The notes under the pieces were generated by a model. It was given only the letters and a program-made list of their open reading frames with translations, did no database searches and was not told the DNA's origin. Source: a virus (Duplodnaviria > Heunggongvirae > Uroviricota > Caudoviricetes). From it: a DNA stretch of 35,920 bases. The stretch is taken from the IMG/VR virus record IMGVR_UViG_2529293138_000008, positions 1-35,920 of that record. The stretch is one strand, 5' to 3'. The position numbers and the translations under genes are program-made. This document shows, one piece after another, positions 1,011 to 35,920 of this stretch (positions are counted from its first letter, which is position 1; each line of letters begins with the position of its first letter).

Positions 1011-1988
1011 TTAAGCACCTCCTAGTGGATTAAACCTCACCGCATCCTGCAGGTAATCCGGCGCAAGATGGGCATAAATCATCGTTGTCTGAATCTTTGC
1101 GTGCCCCAGAATTTTCTGGAGCGTGAGAATATTGCCACCGTTCATCATGAAATGACTGGCGAAGGTGTGACGCAGCGCATGAACAGCCTGGCCGTCAGGA
1201 ACATCAGGTGCGACCGTTTTGATGACATCGCGAACCAATGAATAATCCAGCGTCGGAAACACCAGTTTCCCGCCCCGTTTTTTGATCTTTTCAAACAGGC
1301 TTTCAGAAATAGGAACGGTACGGTTTTTGCTGTTCTTCGTTTTTGAAAAAGTGATTCGACAATGAAGAACACGGCGCTGCTCCAGTACCGCTACCTCGCC
1401 CCATCGCGCCCCGGTCGACAGAAGGATTTCGACAGCCAGCCGTTCATCGGGATTTTCAGCCAATGCATCCAGCAACTGAACACATTCAGACTTACTCAGA
1501 TATCCCATTTCGCGCTCGTTAACCTTCATTCCTTTAAGGCCTTGAACGGGGTTATCGTTAAGAAAATGGCCGGATGAGATGAGTGCGGTAAACATCGCGC
1601 TTAACGCCCCAATCTCTCGATTTATGGTGCTGGGCTGTATCCCCTGCTCTATCCTGGACACACGTAGCTCGGTGAGCATCGTTGTATTAAGTTTATGCAC
1701 GCACGGGTCATCCATTGCCTCACTCAAGCGCAGCAATTTAAGGCGCGTGTTATGCCCTGACTTCATTAGCTGGCCGTGGTATTTCCACCACAAGTCAATA
1801 AGCACTGACAGAGGACGGCGATCAATAGAGTTTCCTTTCCACTCATTGTTATGCTGTTGCGCCAGCACCCACCGCTCATATAAAACTGCATCCGATTTCG
1901 TTTTAAATTTTTTGCGAATGCGTTTGCCTTTACGCCCCTCAGGGCGCATGTCAAGAAGATACCCTCCCGGAATTGATTTTATGCTCAT
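1011..1988 (-). CDS. int: Tyrosine site-specific integrase (P2/186 family)
   Basis: ORF track 1011..2138; start trimmed to internal MSIKS (1988), which matches the P2/186 Int N-terminus and avoids overlap with the repressor. C-terminal HALRHTFASHFMMNGGNILTLQKILGH...IYAHLAPDYLQDAVRFNPL is the catalytic R-H-R-Y region, recalled as near-identical in pattern to 186/P2 Int. Confidence 0.9.
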   Translation of the reverse strand: MSIKSIPGGYLLDMRPEGRKGKRIRKKFKTKSDAVLYERWVLAQQHNNEWKGNSIDRRPLSVLIDLWWKYHGQLMKSGHNTRLKLLRLSEAMDDPCVHKLNTTMLTELRVSRIEQGIQPSTINREIGALSAMFTALISSGHFLNDNPVQGLKGMKVNEREMGYLSKSECVQLLDALAENPDERLAVEILLSTGARWGEVAVLEQRRVLHCRITFSKTKNSKNRTVPISESLFEKIKKRGGKLVFPTLDYSLVRDVIKTVAPDVPDGQAVHALRHTFASHFMMNGGNILTLQKILGHAKIQTTMIYAHLAPDYLQDAVRFNPLGGA

Positions 1989-2037
1989 TCGTGAAACCCC
2001 AGCGTTACAAGACCACCATGCCCCCAGCGCTCCATGA

Positions 2038-2349
2038 TTAGCCGGGCTGTGTACCAGTCTTGCGGGATTTTTGAGAAGACGATGTGTTTTCTGGCCCATC
2101 AGGGGAGAGAGAGGGACTGATCTGCCCAGCAGCCTCATTTGTTTTTCCCGTCATAAGCCATATAGTGTATTTTTCGAAATCCTTAGAATTAATTACGCGA
2201 TCAACAACGCTTAAACCAACCTCTCTTTTACCGCTCTCATAATTCTTTATAGTTCCGAGATTTATCCCAGTAACATCAGCAAACTCAGCTTGAGTTAACC
2301 CTTCACTTTTCCGTATCTCTTTCAGTTTTTTTTCGTACCCACTTGACAT
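2038..2349 (-). CDS. Immunity repressor, HTH (XRE-like), P2 C-type
   Basis: 103 aa. N-terminal LTQAEFADVTGINLGTIKNYESGKR is a classic helix-turn-helix. Position is immediately upstream of int, same strand, divergent from the early operon. Confidence 0.8.
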   Translation of the reverse strand: MSSGYEKKLKEIRKSEGLTQAEFADVTGINLGTIKNYESGKREVGLSVVDRVINSKDFEKYTIWLMTGKTNEAAGQISPSLSPDGPENTSSSQKSRKTGTQPG

Positions 2350-7588: not shown

Positions 7589-7608
7589 ACGGGATTTCAG
7601 AATCCCGT
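7589..7608. repeat. 20-bp palindrome acgggatt-tcag-aatcccgt (copy 2, upstream of parM-like gene); candidate centromere or operator
   Basis: Same arms as copy 1, about 73 bp away centre to centre; lies in the 76-bp gap between A and the ParM-like gene. Confidence 0.6.
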
Positions 7609-7642
7609 AAACGATTAATTAATCAACACAAGGAAAATCGAC

Positions 7643-8602
7643 ATGAAAATTTGTATCGACGACGGCTCCACCAACATCAAGCTGGCATGGACTGAGAACG
7701 GCGAACGCCGCAACGCCATCAGCCCGAACAGCTTCAAGTCGGAATGGTCTGCGCCGTTCGGTGGCACGACGCCTGCAAACTACATGCTTGATGGCGTGCG
7801 CTATGGTTTTGATCCGGTCAGCGATCGCTTTGTCCAGACGACCGACACGCAATATCAGTACAGCGATGTGAATGTCATTGCCATACATCACGCACTGCTC
7901 AAATCAGGCATCACACCACAGGAAGTGGATGTGGTTGTCACCCTGCCACTGAGCGAGTATTTCGACACAAACGCCCAGCCGGATATGACCAACATCAACC
8001 GCAAAAAAGCGAACGTTATGCGACCGGTGGAATACCAGAACGGCGAAGCATTCACTATCCGTAATGTACGGGTTATGCCTGAATCCATTCCGGCTGGCTT
8101 TAAAGCACTGGCTGACATGAGTCCGTTTGAATCCCTGCTGATTGTGGATTTGGGCGGAACCACGCTGGATGTGGCAAAGGTTCAGGGACAACTGGCAGGT
8201 ATCAGCCAGGTGTTTTGCGATCCACACGTAGGCGTTTCACTGATGACCGATGCAGTGCTGTCGGTGATGGCCACCAACGGTATGCGTACCAGCCACCACA
8301 TCGCCAATACCATTATCGAACATCGCCACGATGAAACCTGGCTGCGCCAGCACATCCACAATGACGCGCATTACGCCAGCCTGATGGCGGTTATTAGTGA
8401 AAAGGAAGAAACACTGAAACAACGCGTGATCCGTGCGCTGGCGGGTTTTTCGGGTTACGGGCGGGTGATGGTTGTCGGTGGCGGGGCGGAGATTGTGGCA
8501 CCCGCTATCCGCGAAGCCTGCGGAGTTAATGCGACTTTCATCGCGGACGGGGTGCCACAGTTTGCTCTGGTTAATGGGCTGTACGCAATGGACAAGGAGT
8601 AA
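7643..8602 (+). CDS. parM: ParM/StbA-like actin-type segregation ATPase
   Basis: N-terminus MKICIDDGSTNIKLAW matches plasmid R1 ParM (MLVFIDDGSTNIKLQW, from memory). Further matches recalled: ISPNSFK, YSDVNVIAIHHALL, VMPESIPAG, DLGGTTLD, GGGAE. Length 319 aa, same as ParM. Confidence 0.8.
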   Translation: MKICIDDGSTNIKLAWTENGERRNAISPNSFKSEWSAPFGGTTPANYMLDGVRYGFDPVSDRFVQTTDTQYQYSDVNVIAIHHALLKSGITPQEVDVVVTLPLSEYFDTNAQPDMTNINRKKANVMRPVEYQNGEAFTIRNVRVMPESIPAGFKALADMSPFESLLIVDLGGTTLDVAKVQGQLAGISQVFCDPHVGVSLMTDAVLSVMATNGMRTSHHIANTIIEHRHDETWLRQHIHNDAHYASLMAVISEKEETLKQRVIRALAGFSGYGRVMVVGGGAEIVAPAIREACGVNATFIADGVPQFALVNGLYAMDKE

Positions 8603-8606
8603 ACCA

Positions 8607-8918
8607 ATGACGACACCAACCAGACGAATAAGTTTCTATCTGAAGCCCGCCGCCGTCAAGAACGAAGGCGAAGCATGCGCCTGGCTGGACAGCCTTACAC
8701 CAGAAGCCCGTAAAAACGGCCAACGCGTGGCTTTTCTGGCCGGGCTGGCGCTTCTGAAAATGAATCCGGCAGAGGCTTACCGACTGGCAGCATGGGCTGA
8801 CGATGAGGCGTTATCAGTGAGACAAACCAGGACAGAACGCCCCCTGTCACAGCCAGTACCAACCGCACAGATAACCAGTCAGATGGCCGGAAATATCAGG
8901 GCGTTATTTCCTGAATAA
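8607..8918 (+). CDS. ParR-like centromere-binding adaptor (putative)
   Basis: ORF track 8472..8918 trimmed to ATG 8607, which follows a ggag SD 4 bp after the parM stop. About 103 aa. ISFYLKP...LDSLTPEAR...AFLAGLALL...ALFPE parallels R1 ParR (IAFKLNP...DSIPQGERS...ALTAGLALY...SLFPKE, from memory). Confidence 0.5.
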   Translation: MTTPTRRISFYLKPAAVKNEGEACAWLDSLTPEARKNGQRVAFLAGLALLKMNPAEAYRLAAWADDEALSVRQTRTERPLSQPVPTAQITSQMAGNIRALFPE

Positions 8919-8981
8919 CACAACGTCAGGGCGAGTTCGCCCTGATCTCCATCTCAGAACATAAACAAGAAGAGCGACTTA

Positions 8982-9365
8982 ATGAGCAAAATCAACTATC
9001 AGGCATTACGTGAACGTTATTCACCTGCACCAGTACCAAAATGCCCTATTTGCGGCGAAGAAATGTCAATTCAGCGAATATCTGGATCACAGGTTGTTTA
9101 TGCCTGCTCCGGTTATGGTGATGATGGAGATTTCAAAATTGGTCGAACTCTTGCCGACGAACATTATGAAAAATCACGCGTAACAGTGTTGGATGTCGGG
9201 GATCCTGAAGTATTGGCGCTACTTGATTGGCTGGAAACCAAAGACAACCGAATCGCTGAACTGGAGAAAATCGCCACTGACTATGCACTTAAATTCCAGA
9301 AAGCACAGGACGCATTAAAGTACGCCGCTTTGCTGCATAGCAGGACAGCGCAGCTACAAGACTAA
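8982..9365 (+). CDS. Hypothetical protein with N-terminal zinc-ribbon-like motif (cargo)
   Basis: 127 aa; CPICG ... C...C near the N-terminus, C-terminal predicted helical. Occupies the P2 tin-like position. Confidence 0.5.
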   Translation: MSKINYQALRERYSPAPVPKCPICGEEMSIQRISGSQVVYACSGYGDDGDFKIGRTLADEHYEKSRVTVLDVGDPEVLALLDWLETKDNRIAELEKIATDYALKFQKAQDALKYAALLHSRTAQLQD

Positions 9366-9393
9366 CTTAAAGCGGAAGATTAATACATGGTGA

Positions 9394-9420
9394 GTCGGGA
9401 TAATTTGTTTTTATCCCGAC
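9394..9420. other. Hairpin between convergent cargo genes (possible terminator)
   Basis: gtcgggata-N9-tatcccgac stem-loop, read directly. No clean U-run on either strand, so terminator function is uncertain. Confidence 0.3.
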
Positions 9421-9455
9421 AAATAAACAAAAAAGTGGACTATCTCTGTAGTATC

Positions 9456-9986
9456 TTATTCAGCATCGTCTCGTGCAGTCTGTGCATACGTCACAACAAC
9501 GCCCAATGCATTAGTTTTCTTTTCAACATAGATAATATTGTCATATTCATAGTTACCATACGGATAGCAAATAAGAATATTTTTATGCAGATCGGGATCA
9601 TCAACAAACGCTCCGGAACAGCTTCTTGAACTACCGGATGTATACTCATACGGTGCAACATATGATGATGTTACTCCTGGTAAAAAATAAGTCACCATCA
9701 TAAGAGGGATAATCAGGAATATCCCTGTAAGAATGCAAGAGCCAGCATAAACCTTCAGGTATTCCGACAGTCCTTTCCAGCCACTTTGCTTCACTACCCC
9801 CCTCTTCACCAGAAACAAGGAGAAGAAAAAGGACATACCCATACTACACAAGATGTAATAATTGGATATACGCGAATTAAGATATGTAATCCTGTAGATA
9901 TCTGCCCTCCACCAGTAAAAGAGGAAAATAATCCCTAGCACTGAAACAGTCATGCAAATCAAATAAGGATATGAATCTTTCTTCAT
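9456..9986 (-). CDS. AT-rich integral membrane protein (about 3 TM helices plus C-terminal soluble domain), cargo
   Basis: 176 aa. Hydrophobic segments LICMTVSVLGIIFLFYWW, YILCSMGMSFFFSLFLV, AGSCILTGIFLIIPLMMVTYFL. Visibly lower GC than flanking phage core. Same position and orientation as P2 old (next to cos, minus strand). Confidence 0.55.
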   Translation of the reverse strand: MKKDSYPYLICMTVSVLGIIFLFYWWRADIYRITYLNSRISNYYILCSMGMSFFFSLFLVKRGVVKQSGWKGLSEYLKVYAGSCILTGIFLIIPLMMVTYFLPGVTSSYVAPYEYTSGSSRSCSGAFVDDPDLHKNILICYPYGNYEYDNIIYVEKKTNALGVVVTYAQTARDDAE

Positions 9987-10463
9987 GTCTTGCGCTCATT
10001 AAAATTTCCCTGCTACGAACAAATTTACCATCCGTTTTTTGCGCAGAAAACAGCACGATGCACACTGCACGATAGTGCACAAATTTGCACAATTTTTTTG
10101 AACGACTTTTTACCCTTCCGGCCCGCATGGCGGCTGGATCCGTCAAGGATCCGTGCGTGCACAAAAAAACGCGTTTTTCTGCGCGCAGGTGACGGGGGAA
10201 CAGCCCGCGTTTCAGGGGGTAAATAGCATTCCCTGAGCGATGTCGCAGCGACACAACAGAATGGCTGTATTTCTCACGCTGAGCGTGAAAAAGACGTAAG
10301 GGTTTTTGATTTGATGGGTTGAAAGGTAAGGCCGTCAAAATCGCACTGAGGCGGCGAGAACATACAGTCAACGCGGTGGGATTGCGTAAGAGCCTGACCG
10401 TCGATGGTGGCGATAAACTGGAAGGCGTCGTGAAATTATCTGACTGATACAGGAACTGGAGAG

Positions 10464-10488
10464 TCGGGGCATAAATTTTTTATGCCCC
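10464..10488. other. Hairpin just downstream of portal gene (possible terminator or cos-associated structure)
   Basis: cggggcataaa-ttt-tttatgccccg, read directly. Confidence 0.3.
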
Positions 10489-10515
10489 GGCGAAGCAGCA
10501 GGCAAGCGAAGCGCG

Positions 10516-25785: not shown

Positions 25786-26358
25786 CTATTTATATAATAC
25801 AACACCGCTCTTTTTAGTTATATATGTGCAGTTCGATGGTATATCTTTATTTATAAAAGACATTGCACCTATTTTTACATTATCCCCAATTTTACGTGAT
25901 AATCCAATGATGCAACAATTAGCTCCGATATCAACGTTATTACCAATTTTTATTCTTGCACCAGGCATGTCACCATCTATCTGTCCAATGGTAGTATTCT
26001 GTCGTAACACCAGATTTTCACCAGCATCAACAGCAAAATGAACAACAATTCCAGCATGATGGGGAATTGTTAACCCTTTTCCAATATTTGCACCCAATCC
26101 AATTTCGCAACCAAACTTGTTAATTATTTTACTGTTTAACTTCTTGGCTGCTTTCTTATGTAATTCATTACCATTAATATACATTTCGTTAGCCAACCGC
26201 CACCAGAAAAGGAAATTCCGGTTACGCTGCTTTTTCTCTCTTAAAAGCCTCCAGATATCCACACGTTTCCGCCGAATTACTTCATATTTCCAGAAGTTTT
26301 TTAAATCAGTAGAGTTTCCAAATAAAACAAAGTGAATTGCCATTAAGTAAGACAGCAC
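25786..26358 (-). CDS. Hexapeptide-repeat (left-handed beta-helix) O-acetyltransferase, CysE/WcaB/NeuO-like (moron)
   Basis: 190 aa with repeated [LIV]-G-x-x-x-x hexads (IGLGANIGKGLTIPHHAGIVV, IKIGNNVDIGANCCIIG, IGDNVKIGAMSFI). Strongly AT-rich relative to flanking genes. Confidence 0.7.
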   Translation of the reverse strand: MLSYLMAIHFVLFGNSTDLKNFWKYEVIRRKRVDIWRLLREKKQRNRNFLFWWRLANEMYINGNELHKKAAKKLNSKIINKFGCEIGLGANIGKGLTIPHHAGIVVHFAVDAGENLVLRQNTTIGQIDGDMPGARIKIGNNVDIGANCCIIGLSRKIGDNVKIGAMSFINKDIPSNCTYITKKSGVVLYK

Positions 26359-32090: not shown

Positions 32091-32247
32091 AGCTTCAGCC
32101 CCTTGTATCCGTTAAATGATTCGGCAACAATCATCACCCACCACGCGCGTAATCTCACCCCTGCGCCGTTCTCCCGCCACGGCGACAACAAAAAGCAGTA
32201 ACCCCCTCCGCACGCACATGCGACCATGCCGCACAGGGAGGGAACAG

Positions 32248-33357
32248 ATGACCGACACCACCATGCAATTGCTCAGTCAGGGCACAGACCCCGTAAAAAT
32301 GCCGGATTTTGATATTCTCGCGGAGGGTAAAACGCTGTCCGGCGTGGCAGAGCGCCTGATGAGCCTGTCGCTGACCGACAACCGGGGATTTGAGGCAGAC
32401 CAGCTCACCATCACGCTGGATGATGCGGATGGTCAGTTGCAGCTACCGCCACGGGGCGCGCGCCTGACGGTTCTCATTGGCTGGAAAGGCGAACCGCTGA
32501 CAGAAAAAGGGTCTTACATTGTTGATGAAATCGCACACGAAGGACCGCCGGACAGGCTGACTGTTTCAGCCAGAAGCGCAGATTTCCGGGATGAATTTAA
32601 CGTTAAACGTGAGGTGTCCTGGCATGATGTGACCGTTGAGCGTGTGGTATCCGCCATCGCTCATCGGTACGGTCTGAAACCGCAAATCAGCGAAATGCTG
32701 ATGGATATCGAAATCGACCACGCCGACCAGACCGAAGAAAGTGACATGTCCTTCCTTACGCGCATGGCGGAAATGCTGGGCGCAATCACTACGGTAAAAA
32801 GCGGTAATCTGTTATTCATCATGCCCGGTGGTGGCGTGAACGCACAGGGCCAGCCGTTGCCATCGTTCGCCATCACGCGCAGCAGCGGCGATCGCCATCA
32901 GTTCCGCATTGCTGACCGCGAGGCGTATACGGGGGTACGCGCTTACTGGCTTGATCTTAATTACGGGAAAAAGAAAAAAGTCAGCGTGAAACGCCGCAAA
33001 CCGCCAAAACCGAAAAAAGAGAAAAGCAGCAGCCGTGAAGGTGATTATATGGAAGGCGCGGAAGGCAATGTGTTTGTGTTACGCAAGACTTATCAGAACG
33101 AGCAGGCAGCAAGACGCGCAGCGGCGGCAAAGTGGCAACAACTACAACGCGGAGCCGCATCATTCTCCATCACGCTGGCACGTGGACGAGCAGAACTCTA
33201 CCCCGAAATGCATGGCACGGTAACAGGATTTAAAAGCGAGATTGATAATCAGGACTGGATTATTGCAAAAGCCGAGCACACCATTGATAACAGCGGCTTT
33301 ACCACGCAGCTTGAGCTTGAGGCAAAAATCCCGGAATGGATAGCAGAAACAGAGTGA
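32248..33357 (+). CDS. D: Tail protein D (P2 gpD-like)
   Basis: ORF track 32116..33357 trimmed to ATG 32248 after a gggaggg SD. LSGVAERLMSLSLTDNRGFEAD, ARSADFR, SWHD, lysine-rich linker and REGDYMEGAEGNVF align with recalled P2 gpD. Confidence 0.85.
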   Translation: MTDTTMQLLSQGTDPVKMPDFDILAEGKTLSGVAERLMSLSLTDNRGFEADQLTITLDDADGQLQLPPRGARLTVLIGWKGEPLTEKGSYIVDEIAHEGPPDRLTVSARSADFRDEFNVKREVSWHDVTVERVVSAIAHRYGLKPQISEMLMDIEIDHADQTEESDMSFLTRMAEMLGAITTVKSGNLLFIMPGGGVNAQGQPLPSFAITRSSGDRHQFRIADREAYTGVRAYWLDLNYGKKKKVSVKRRKPPKPKKEKSSSREGDYMEGAEGNVFVLRKTYQNEQAARRAAAAKWQQLQRGAASFSITLARGRAELYPEMHGTVTGFKSEIDNQDWIIAKAEHTIDNSGFTTQLELEAKIPEWIAETE

Positions 33358-33582
33358 GCAACTTAAATGTATTAACTCAGAACGGATCAACACACTCACA
33401 ACATAGAGTCAATATAGCTGCTCGCTTTGTTCCAGCAAGGATGCCTATTTCTAAGGAAAAACAGAGCAGAAACATATGGTGTTTTCCTACCTGACATCAG
33501 GGGTGGTAAGAATCATGCTTTGATAACCAATTGATAACTATTATTATATTAATCTAACACCATTGACATAGTTGAGGTTTGA

Positions 33583-35085
33583 ATGAACAAAAAGCTGTAT
33601 TTATTCCCAGACTCAAACATTTTTCTACAATGCAAGGACTTGACGCAGGTAAATTTTTCCGAGATTACTGCTTGTGATGAAGTATGTATCATTATTACAA
33701 GGCCCATTCAGCAAGAGATTGACCGCCAGAAAGGGCAAGGTAATTCCCGCCTATCCAAAAAAGCAAGGAAGGCTGCTAGCCTATTTAATCAAGTAGTTGA
33801 TTCAACTGACATGACTCTTGTTATTCGTGAACGCTCGCCGCGAGTTTTTCTTACCATGGATCTAAGCCTGAAACCATGTGAACAGTTATCTGAACAATTG
33901 GATTATCAGGAGGCCGACGATCGTTTTGTTGGTATTGCGGCAGGGTATTGCGCTGACGATCCAGATTCGGAGGTGGCAATCATTACCAATGATAGCGGTC
34001 CACGTTTTTCAGCAATAAAACATAATATAATCTGCTATAAAGTGCCTTCTTCATGGTTGCTTCCTGCTGAGCCAGATGAAAAGGATAAACAAATTAAATT
34101 GCTGGAAGCTAAGCTGAAGCAATTCACTCAGTCTATGCCCGATTTCAGCATTAAAGTAGCCGATGACGAGCAATTAAATATTGTACTTCCTTATTATACA
34201 GCTTTATCTGTATATGAAGTTGATAATTTGCTTTGTCAACTAACGGATGCATTCCCATTGGTTACAAACTTTGACAATGAACAAACTACCCCACAATCAC
34301 TAGAAAAAATCATCAAGTCATTTAGTCAACAGGAGTATTTCCCTGTATCAGCAGATGATATTTCTCTTTATAAAGAAAAACATTATCCACTTTGGAAAAA
34401 GCAGTGTGAAGAAATACTGAAAAACTGTCATACTCATATTAATCCGAAGGCAATAAAATACCCGCTGTCGTTTTTATTACAAAACACAGGTTATACTATC
34501 GCTGAACGTGCTGTGGTAACATTTACAGCAAAAGGAGATTTTCGTCTGTGTGGATTTAATTGGGAGATAATGGAAGAGCTGACTGAAAGCAAAAGGATTG
34601 ACCTACCTTCAGCCCCTACCGCCCCCAAAGGAAAATGGCGTAGTGTATGTGGCGTAACAGAAAGAATGCCTTACGCTTGGGGAGCTTTGGAAACACCGCT
34701 ATCCAGTATAATTTCAAAAGAAATTGGTCCTTTGTTATCTCTTACTCCAACAGAAAGGGATAAAAACGATTTTTATTATAAAGAAAAGAGAAATGAGCCA
34801 GTTCAAGTTGTATCGCTGGAATGCGAAGAGTGGCGTCATCAAGTCAAAGAAGAAATATTCCCGTTGTTCGTATATACAGCCAACAAACCAAAGAAAGTGA
34901 ATGGTGCAATTGAGGTGAGAGTTGATGCAAATAACCTTACCAATCCGGTCATTAAAACATTTAAATTAAAAATAACTATAGAAGAACATAGTGCATTTTC
35001 AACCATAACAGAAATGGTGCAGACATACATTCAAGAGCAGAAGAAAAGACAGAAAAGTTCTATTAGCGCACAAATCAAAACATGA
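33583..35085 (+). CDS. Stand-alone 500-aa protein with PIN-like N-terminal nuclease fold and uncharacterised C-terminal domain (cargo; candidate defence gene)
   Basis: AT-rich gene with its own sigma70-like promoter region (TTGATA ... TATATT around 33520-33560), gagg SD and downstream hairpin. N-terminal acidic residues in PIN-like spacing: LYLFPDSNIF (D), QQEID (E/D), QEADDRFVGIAAG (D), AIITNDSGP (D). C-terminal ~330 aa has no motif I recognise. Confidence 0.6.
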   Translation: MNKKLYLFPDSNIFLQCKDLTQVNFSEITACDEVCIIITRPIQQEIDRQKGQGNSRLSKKARKAASLFNQVVDSTDMTLVIRERSPRVFLTMDLSLKPCEQLSEQLDYQEADDRFVGIAAGYCADDPDSEVAIITNDSGPRFSAIKHNIICYKVPSSWLLPAEPDEKDKQIKLLEAKLKQFTQSMPDFSIKVADDEQLNIVLPYYTALSVYEVDNLLCQLTDAFPLVTNFDNEQTTPQSLEKIIKSFSQQEYFPVSADDISLYKEKHYPLWKKQCEEILKNCHTHINPKAIKYPLSFLLQNTGYTIAERAVVTFTAKGDFRLCGFNWEIMEELTESKRIDLPSAPTAPKGKWRSVCGVTERMPYAWGALETPLSSIISKEIGPLLSLTPTERDKNDFYYKEKRNEPVQVVSLECEEWRHQVKEEIFPLFVYTANKPKKVNGAIEVRVDANNLTNPVIKTFKLKITIEEHSAFSTITEMVQTYIQEQKKRQKSSISAQIKT

Positions 35086-35192
35086 GGGTGTACTCAAATA
35101 ATACAATGCTATAGTAAATCTATAAGTGCATAACTATTTCCTGATCTTTTCCCAAAATAGATGACAGGATAAAAAACATTCCAATCTTTTAC

Positions 35193-35218
35193 AGGCTTTG
35201 GATAAATCGTATCAAAGC
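35193..35218 (+). terminator. Hairpin downstream of the PIN-like gene (possible terminator)
   Basis: ggctttggata-aatcg-tatcaaagcc, followed by a T-rich stretch (tatttcttc). Confidence 0.35.
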
Positions 35219-35328
35219 CTATTTCTTCAAGAGTTAAATCACCGCTTTTCGCTCGAAACGGACTGGCTGTTGGAGTATGAGCCAGAACAACTTAGAATAG
35301 CCCCTGCACTACGTTAAGGGAGGTCGCT

Positions 35329-35589
35329 ATGTTCCGTTGTCCGCTTTGTGGCGCATCTGCCCGCATCCGTACCAGTCGTCCGGAAAATGATTCAAACACC
35401 GTGCGGCAAAAGTATTACCAGTGTAACAATCTAGAATGCGGCGTATGCTTCTCAACACTGGAAGCTTTTCATAAATTCACATCGAAACACGCCTCCGGCG
35501 TTCACTCTTCAGAAGGTATCCCGTGGCATGAGCTGCCAGCTTCACACAGGGGAAACAATCAGATGAGTTTGCCTTTGCCTCAAAATTAA
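35329..35589 (+). CDS. ogr: Ogr/Delta-family zinc-finger late-gene transcription activator
   Basis: MFRCPLCGASARIRTSR ... YYQCNNLECGVCFSTLE matches the P2 Ogr Cys4 pattern (MFHCPLCQHAAHARTSR ... YHQCQNVNCSATF, from memory). AAGGGAGG SD upstream. Confidence 0.85.
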   Translation: MFRCPLCGASARIRTSRPENDSNTVRQKYYQCNNLECGVCFSTLEAFHKFTSKHASGVHSSEGIPWHELPASHRGNNQMSLPLPQN

Positions 35590-35649
35590 CAGGCAGAATT
35601 GCCGGAGTAACAAAAAAGCGATAGATTACGCGCGGGTGCCTTTCGGCTG

Positions 35650-35862
35650 ATGGTCGGAGGGAATACCCGAAGGCCAGATGTGGAAAGGCCCCGGAAAACA
35701 TCTCTGTTTAACCGAGGCCCTAACCGCATTACCTTGACAAGTGAAAGGTTAGCGCCTCTCCGGAAAAGGAGCAAGTGCTATGTCGCAAAAATCGCTTACG
35801 GCCATCACGTTCTGTGTGACGGCAATCCTCATCATCTGGATGTTGCACGGTTCGCTGTGTGA
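35650..35862 (+). CDS. Mok-like overlapping reading frame of a hok/sok-type locus (putative)
   Basis: 70-aa ORF overlapping the hok start in a different frame, as in hok/mok/sok loci. Weak by itself. Confidence 0.35.
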   Translation: MVGGNTRRPDVERPRKTSLFNRGPNRITLTSERLAPLRKRSKCYVAKIAYGHHVLCDGNPHHLDVARFAV

Positions 35863-35920
35863 AATACGGATGAGCTTCTGGGGAGCGGAGTTTGCGGCGT
35901 TCTTACAGTGTAAGCAGTAA
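35780..35920 (+). CDS. hok: Hok/Gef-family type I toxin (small membrane peptide)
   Basis: 46-aa ORF MSQKSLTAITFCVTAILIIWMLHGSLCEIRMSFWGAEFAAFLQCKQ: N-terminal TM helix followed by the family-typical SLCEIR motif and AAF. Stop codon is the last three bases of the window. Confidence 0.7.
   Translation: MSQKSLTAITFCVTAILIIWMLHGSLCEIRMSFWGAEFAAFLQCKQ

Follow-up and report, generated by a model that had tools for sequence, protein, structure and literature searches.

A PIN-domain gene carried as a single-gene cassette between gpD and ogr of a P2-like Escherichia coli prophage, a candidate anti-phage defence

We analysed a 35,920 nucleotide (nt) stretch of viral DNA (IMG/VR record IMGVR_UViG_2529293138_000008, hereafter the window), which is a P2-like, P88-like (Peduoviridae) prophage of Escherichia coli, and in particular an AT-rich island between its tail gene D (gpD) and the late-gene activator ogr, which carries one gene for a 500 amino acid (aa) PIN-domain protein. 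Pfam matches in the window include an integrase (1011-2138, minus strand), the replication protein GpA, portal, tail sheath, gpD and Ogr, and RefSeq copies of the prophage in E. coli O111 and O157 adjoin ihfA-pheT. The left flank of the island is the tail/baseplate gene gpD (32116..33357, plus strand; Pfam Phage_GPD, E 4.4e-17), 96.8% identical to gene D of phage P88; these coordinates are those of the longest open-reading frame (ORF) and the true start is probably more downstream. The right flank is the ogr/Delta activator (35329..35589, plus strand; Pfam Ogr_Delta, E 5.1e-14). The ORF between them (33583..35085, plus strand, ATG start; RefSeq WP_001035742.1) encodes an N-terminal PIN_4 nuclease domain (residues 1-160, 33583..34062) followed by a family-specific C-terminal module (residues 165-500, 34075..35082).

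A prediction made earlier from the letters of the sequence (the original prediction) had described an AT-rich island with a single 500-aa gene, which holds, and had taken D and ogr to be normally adjacent, which holds for the closest phages. The island (33366..35288, 1923 bp) has a GC content of 0.379 against 0.524 in the remainder of the window; in 300-nt windows GC is 0.32-0.46 over 33250-35350 and about 0.50-0.61 in the flanks, and GC at third codon positions (GC3) of the ORF is 0.319. In blastn comparison with P88, homology stops at 33365 and restarts at 35289; the two matching P88 segments share 6 nt, so that nothing separates D from ogr in that phage, and the window carries a 1923-bp insert. 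Phages 500465-2 and 520873, which carry two other cargo types, have the same cargo junctions, which correspond to window positions 33374-33379 and 35256-35287. A search of the island's flanks for the direct or inverted repeats that mark transposons returned only short, chance-level matches. The D and ogr flanks were found in 1508 of 5426 complete E. coli genomes and the PIN island (≥99% identity) in 57-59. In a spread sample of 60 records, 42 had both flanks, 24 of the 42 were empty (span about 1470 bp), and at least nine different inserts occupied the non-empty sites.

The alternative cargo at the D-ogr site includes, in loci L078-L080 (E. coli MEI003, TUM13770 and 7_11_88A), the 527-aa type IV restriction enzyme GmrSD, already known, a DUF3800 protein (389 aa, on the opposite, minus strand) and a YecA-family protein (379 aa). 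Elsewhere the site holds a protein of 132 aa and further hypothetical proteins. A further cargo, a 340-aa protein encoded on the opposite strand of phage 500465-2 (L008, 1379-2401), possesses an Rx4H motif (RHGIVH), matches HEPN_RiboL-PSP weakly (E 1.2e-4, under the Pfam cut-off) and recurs in several E. coli genomes (span 2763 bp); it is a second candidate stand-alone ribonuclease (RNase) at this site. It is equal in length to the defence protein DS-3, discussed below, an identity which we rejected as the translation shows a different protein. Presence or absence between core genes and alternative cargo at common junctions, together with atypical composition and predicted expression signals of its own, characterise the PIN gene as a moron at a variable site, and the D-ogr junction of P88-like prophages looks like a single-gene cargo hotspot besides the A/Q and Z/fun sites. 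The hotspot idea is itself not new: variable cargo sites are well known in P2-like phages (Rousset et al. 2022, PMC9122126; PMC13586616), where P2/P4 defence hotspots have been described and the P2 old, tin and Z/fun cargo excludes other phages. The PIN gene resembles that cargo in being a low-GC accessory gene at a fixed variable site of a P2-like prophage. D-ogr falls outside the two classical hotspots, and PMC9122126 and PMC13586616 mention neither ogr nor PIN.

The gene had also been predicted to possess its own promoter-like sequence and a downstream hairpin, and both features are present in the sequence. A sigma-70 promoter-like sequence, TTGATA-16-TATTAT (33520..33547, plus strand), matches 10 of 12 consensus positions 36 nt ahead of the ATG; promoter-like sites across the region are no more numerous than in shuffled sequences, leaving weak, positional support. 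A Shine-Dalgarno GAGG (33574..33577, plus strand), read from the sequence, lies 5 nt ahead of the ATG, and the stretch around it, GTTGAGGTTT, is kept in a Rahnella copy of the gene. Downstream, a terminator-like hairpin (35193..35220, plus strand), AGGCTTTG-N12-CAAAGCCT then TATTTCTTC, appears in both the minimum free energy (MFE) and centroid folds with a T-rich run directly 3' of it, and is likewise kept in Rahnella, where one A-to-G change preserves the pair as T.G. The same hairpin was missed by a consensus terminator scan (its loop exceeds 8 nt) and the fold of the region has a z-score of only -1.4. No RNA gene turned up when the island was scanned against Rfam; the one match in the vicinity was sok, downstream of ogr.

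The Rahnella copy lies at a different site, between gpS and gpV of another P2-like prophage (L002, 7858-9686), and matches 33441..35265 (plus strand) of the window with 78% nucleotide identity over 1842 nt. Besides the ORF, the match takes in about 140 nt of upstream and about 180 nt of downstream sequence, the hairpin included, and since it spans all three components at another site, the promoter region, gene and hairpin move as one unit. The island is thus an autonomous and mobile cargo cassette of promoter, one gene and hairpin at a variable prophage site. This, with the presence/absence polymorphism and the alternative inserts, bears out the proposal that the gene is horizontally acquired cargo.

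The spacing of acidic residues had suggested a PIN-type nuclease at the N-terminus, which profile and fold searches confirm. The Pfam PIN_4 profile (PF13638) matches residues 10-151 with 33.9 bits against a cut-off of 21.9 (E 4.4e-8), aligning over profile positions 4-128 of 132. In an AlphaFold2 model of the full-length protein, built with 27 homologues (mean predicted local distance difference test, pLDDT, 84; predicted template modelling score, pTM, 0.53), the N-terminus adopts a Rossmann-like alpha/beta/alpha PIN fold nearest to RNA-cutting PINs, and a BFVD fold search returned PIN matches only. The acidic residues D10, E45/D47, D112/D113 and D137 are conserved: among 161 full-length family members, D10 is present wherever the alignment has a residue at its column (152/152 sequences), E45 in 159/161, D47 in 158/161, D112 in 161/161 and D137 in 160/161, so that four acidic positions are retained in at least 98% of the relatives having a residue there. 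Their order and spacing resemble the SMG6 catalytic tetrad D1251/E1282/D1353/D1392 (PMC5499597), an equivalence that we infer from order and spacing and not from superposition. By profile, fold and conserved active-site residues the 500-aa protein is a member of the PIN superfamily with an intact conserved acidic site, and is a predicted metal-dependent endoribonuclease of the SMG6/PIN_4 type. RNA is most likely the substrate, by analogy with SMG6, Utp24, Nob1, VapC and PhoH2.

Residues 165-500 had been described as matching nothing recognisable, and we found no match in Pfam, NCBIfam, PADLOC or PDB sequences, and only a marginal one in PHROG. The module runs in the order linker helix, small alpha/beta unit, disordered linker, helical hairpin, immunoglobulin (Ig)-like beta-sandwich with one disordered loop, and terminal helix; modelled alone it has a pLDDT of 84.6 and a pTM of 0.73. 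Ten of its residues are invariant in 161/161 sequences (Y263, W271, N301, G303, P345, P348, C414, R418, H419 and N451), and C275 (97%) and H283 (94%) are nearly so. The four Cys/His positions could form a zinc site, and the other invariant residues could make up a ligand or partner surface. The overall plan, an N-terminal PIN_4 domain followed by an accessory domain, is shared with SMG6, Nmd4, PhoH2 and PIN-TRAM proteins, in which the accessory domain binds or handles RNA and which also give the best profile and fold matches. The accessory domain here is a new helical and Ig-like module, not PhoH, TRAM, KH or 14-3-3-like, and whereas SMG6-type proteins belong to RNA quality control, the context here is mobile cargo and defence loci.

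Both parts of the protein are under purifying selection. In a codon alignment with the Rahnella orthologue (73% amino-acid identity), the ratio of nonsynonymous to synonymous substitution rates (dN/dS) was 0.23 overall, 0.13 in residues 1-160 and 0.27 in the rest, the C-terminal module. A word-indexed search recovered 51 full-length homologues with identities down to 28%, and a profile of the C-terminal module searched against 1.84 billion representatives matched 1489 clusters (50% identity) at E ≤ 0.001, 718 of them at E ≤ 1e-30. Of the best 150 module matches, most measure about 470-560 aa and have the module beginning at around residue 165, while the shorter proteins look like fragments, and PIN_4 was present in six of six scanned members of PIN length. 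The two-module architecture therefore appears essentially fixed; that the module is a swappable sensor placed on other effectors was rejected, nearly all of the best 150 being PIN plus module. One exception is a 745-aa metagenomic protein (P0052) in which the module follows a multi-pass membrane N-terminus with a weak Wzy_C hint, accompanied by a low-complexity linker and a junk-like C-terminal tail, and which may be either a rare effector swap or an artefact of assembly or gene calling.

Scanned genomes with the family belong to Pseudomonadota, many Dehalococcoidia, Latescibacterota, Gemmatimonadota, Opitutales, Rhodothermaceae and Acidimicrobiales, giving at least seven phyla (Pseudomonadota, Chloroflexota, Latescibacterota, Gemmatimonadota, Verrucomicrobiota, Bacteroidota and Actinomycetota). 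Some metagenome-assembled genomes of Dehalococcoidia hold two copies (L041/L042 and L032/L068), those of the first pair lying about 55 kb apart on one contig with L042 inside a type I restriction-modification (R-M) operon. A tblastn search of 50,697 sequenced phage records did not find the PIN gene.

The relatives occupy varied sites. Among the closer ones (44-73% identity), the Rahnella copy is at the S/V site of its P2-like prophage, an Enterobacter copy is at the classical A/Q hotspot of a P2-like prophage, adjoining an AAA_15/21 ATPase (L005), and a Pectobacterium copy is in an integrative and conjugative element (ICE); another adjoins a Gabija-like ATPase and UvrD pair among integrases and a zeta toxin, and another lies by a prophage remnant. 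A 34% relative sits in a 186-like prophage between the integrase and the chromosome junction (int/att). Relatives therefore occupy the A/Q and int/att hotspots described in PMC9122126 and PMC13586616, and the family is not among the systems catalogued there. Among the distant relatives (about 30% identity), some are found in type I R-M operons. For example, one (L013, 7001-8497) occupies position X in the order hsdM - toxin-antitoxin (TA) - hsdS - X - TA - hsdR, and another (L016) starts 34 nt past hsdS. A count over 51 species-level loci gave 16 in which type I R-M genes lie no further than 10 kb away, and about 13 with the co-directional order hsdM-hsdS-X-(...)-hsdR, with the start of X often overlapping the hsdS stop. 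The two nearest upstream ORFs of the 51 loci (99 in total) include 16 MTase_I and 10 Specificity_I by PADLOC, and nine Methylase_S, six N6_Mtase, three AbiEii and four Polbeta by Pfam, whilst downstream ORFs include four HsdR, GajA, QatC/D, a type IIG R-M enzyme, DrmMI and PDC candidates. The association of the family with defence loci and with hotspots of mobile elements is thus strong. In all 15 loci examined the neighbours are unrelated, so that the PIN family has no conserved partner gene and is a one-gene unit.

The intact PIN_4 site, the purifying selection, the lack of an antitoxin or partner gene, the carriage as hotspot cargo, the embedding in R-M operons and the defence genes alongside make a single-protein anti-phage defence the best reading of the 500-aa gene, and we consider it probable that this is an uncatalogued defence of the abortive-infection type. 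The suggestion in the original prediction of an abortive-infection effector stands accordingly as a well-founded candidate, on the grounds of domain and defence context. In the mechanism that we infer, a lysogen would express the protein from the cassette's own promoter as a latent RNase, restrained by its own C-terminal module; since a free PIN RNase would be toxic and there is no antitoxin gene, latency by way of this module is the most likely arrangement. Infection by another phage would yield a cue that frees the RNase, which would cleave cellular and/or phage RNA (transfer, ribosomal or messenger RNA), and the cleavage would halt translation and phage production, an abortive outcome.

The nearest precedent in design is DS-3, found by DefensePredictor (E. 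coli WP_022645725.1, 340 aa), a validated anti-phage defence whose catalytic mutants lose defence and for which auto-inhibition until infection has been proposed (PMC13092281). Like the protein described here, it is a single protein with a PIN ribonuclease domain and without a cognate antitoxin. In DS-3, however, the two ends of the protein each hold a part of the PIN domain, whereas the 500-aa protein has an unbroken PIN domain at its N-terminus and, behind it, a 335-aa module with no counterpart in DS-3. Homology to DS-3 was rejected (hhalign of the family profile against WP_022645725.1, probability 0.1%), as was homology to the PIN protein of DS-5 (WP_021513009.1, probability 0.2%), and the N-terminal sequence of the 500-aa protein is absent from those DefensePredictor supplementary tables that were searched (PMC13092281). 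HEC-03, an ABC ATPase with a VapC-like PIN (Payne et al. 2024, bioRxiv 10.1101/2024.01.29.577857), and DS-5, a PIN_12 protein with a partner, resemble the family in that a PIN nuclease is embedded in, or predicted near, other immune systems. Identity with either was rejected, both being two-gene systems, whilst the PIN family has neither a conserved partner nor a PADLOC match. A literature search found no paper naming WP_001035742, which RefSeq labels merely 'PIN domain-containing protein', and as far as we could check, in a comparison that did not extend to the E. coli prophage screen of Brenes & Laub 2025, neither the PIN family nor its C-terminal domain has been described.

Several observations weigh against a defence role or against details of the mechanism. 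The comparison with defence catalogues that had been proposed gave 0 families at E ≤ 1 in PADLOC-DB v2.0.0 (including its HEC and PDC candidates), and the family being uncatalogued there, its assignment to defence rests on association. For some relatives, such as P0025, the surroundings are ordinary chromosome. A sensor of fast-evolving phage proteins would not usually be as highly conserved as the C-terminal module is, with its ten invariant residues. How the two modules are placed relative to each other is uncertain in the full-length model (pTM 0.53), which thus does not demonstrate auto-inhibition. The promoter and terminator are predictions at the level of sequence consensus. PIN-like domains are also able to cut DNA, and RNA is for this reason an unproven substrate.

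The embedding in type I operons would also fit a different role, in which the protein is a guard of restriction enzymes comparable to PrrC. In such a scheme the latent RNase would dock through its C-terminal module on the type I complex (HsdM/HsdS/HsdR) and be freed once a phage disables that complex with an Ocr-, ArdA- or Stp-like anti-restriction protein. The prrC gene of the EcoprrI locus lies between hsdS and hsdR. About 13 of the 51 loci (including L013 and L016) place the family co-directionally in this hsdS-X-hsdR position, and the invariant C-terminal residues would suit the binding of a conserved partner. A coupling of PIN-like genes to type I R-M, some of them without an antitoxin, had already been noted by Matelska et al. 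2017 (PMC5499597). The likeness to PrrC and RloC, a latent RNase gene between hsdS and hsdR whose silent nuclease is released on infection, is however one of position, for a part of the family, and of proposed behaviour, as PrrC combines an ABC-ATPase with an anticodon nuclease whereas the 500-aa protein is a PIN domain with a beta-sandwich, is unrelated to PrrC in sequence and fold, and has no PrrC or ATPase match in NCBIfam or Pfam. Moreover, neither the window copy nor the closer enterobacterial relatives (Rahnella, Enterobacter and Pectobacterium) have adjacent R-M genes, so that prophage copies would have to use the host's resident type I enzyme or have become independent. Many unrelated toxins (VapBC, AbiE and HEPN-MNT) likewise sit within type I loci, the same ones among them, and for this reason the embedding may show only a shared defence context. 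Because of these toxins and of the prophage copies without R-M neighbours, we regard such a guard as unlikely. It is similarly doubtful that prophages and ICEs captured it as a portable cassette which plugs into the type I enzyme of a new host, providing a second, independent back-up immunity for R-M. If true, the guard would be far more widespread than PrrC, with about 1,500 clusters at 50% identity in at least seven phyla.

We think it distinctly improbable that the gene encodes an addiction toxin, which would stabilise its carrier element by post-segregational killing and not by blocking phages. PIN is the commonest toxin fold of TA systems (PMC5499597), the gene travels on prophages and an ICE, and a hok/sok-like module lies just downstream in the prophage. 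Nevertheless, there is no antitoxin candidate: the window has no conserved small ORF on either side of the gene, and the neighbours differ in every locus examined. The protein differs from VapC in the same respect, lacking an adjacent VapB-like antitoxin gene, and at 500 aa with a fixed extra module it is three to four times the size of the single-domain, 130-150-aa VapC. The embedding in R-M operons and the adjacency to Gabija, Qat and type IIG R-M genes also indicate defence over addiction. Finally, an RNase serving the phage's own cycle (by host mRNA shut-off or RNA processing) or acting as counter-defence against host or satellite systems is the least probable reading, since despite the gene's late-region position in the orientation of D and ogr and the carriage of PhoH2-type PIN_4 proteins by phages (PMC5499597), most closely related prophages lack it, as do all of the phage records searched, many relatives are in non-phage loci (R-M operons, an ICE and plain chromosome), and its own promoter-like site and hairpin suggest expression independent of the late operon.

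Other features of the prophage were recorded alongside the cassette. A hok/sok-like module lies directly 3' of ogr (35634-35920), comprising a sok antisense RNA match (RF01794, 48.4 bits, E 4e-9, under the gathering score of 59) and a Hok/Gef-like ORF which starts at 35780 and continues past the window end, annotated as Hok/Gef or MokW-like in RefSeq and related phages. At the A/Q (old/tin-type) hotspot (7600-10500) are genes for a ParM/StbA actin-like segregation protein (7643-8602) and for an Ead/Ea22-like protein (8982-9365), together with a 176-aa ORF (9456-9986, minus strand) that has no PADLOC or Pfam match; the same ParM/StbA pair also adjoins the PIN homologue in the Enterobacter prophage (L005). 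The tail fibre assembly gene and the tail genes enclose the Z/fun-type site, which carries a hexapeptide-repeat acetyltransferase (25786-26358, minus strand; RefSeq 'serine O-acetyltransferase'), which has no PADLOC match and may be a lysogenic-conversion gene.

At the D-ogr site itself, the right junctions of every cargo type (35256-35329) are only about 40 nt ahead of the ogr start codon, and the cargo hairpin sits between gene D and ogr. A weak TTGGAG (35270-35275) and, 17 nt on, TAGAAT (35293-35298) straddle the right junction, so that the cargo would supply the -35 region of any ogr promoter. For gene D in O111 strain 11128, RefSeq has an 801-nt 'VgrG/Pvc8 family' coding sequence and an antisense pseudo-fragment (L001, 7147-8000). 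The gene D ORF is uninterrupted for 413 codons in the window and annotated with 367 codons in P88, and the discrepancy probably stems from inconsistent annotation, not from disruption of the gene.

The C-terminal module, with its invariant Cys, His, Arg, Asn and Trp residues, is a new domain, whose ligand or partner would define the control of the nuclease. The D-ogr site can be mined for further systems, its HEPN-like, DUF3800 and YecA-family cargo and several hypothetical proteins being at hand, and the recurrence of the hsdS-X-hsdR order provides a directly testable connection of restriction with a back-up RNase, a question that has been open since PrrC. If the prediction of defence is true, the PIN gene would represent an uncatalogued and widespread one-gene defence family of about the 1,500 clusters given above, and as the family is missing from PADLOC, defence counts overlook it, including in those enterohaemorrhagic E. 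coli (EHEC) O157 and O111 lineages which carry the P2-like prophage.

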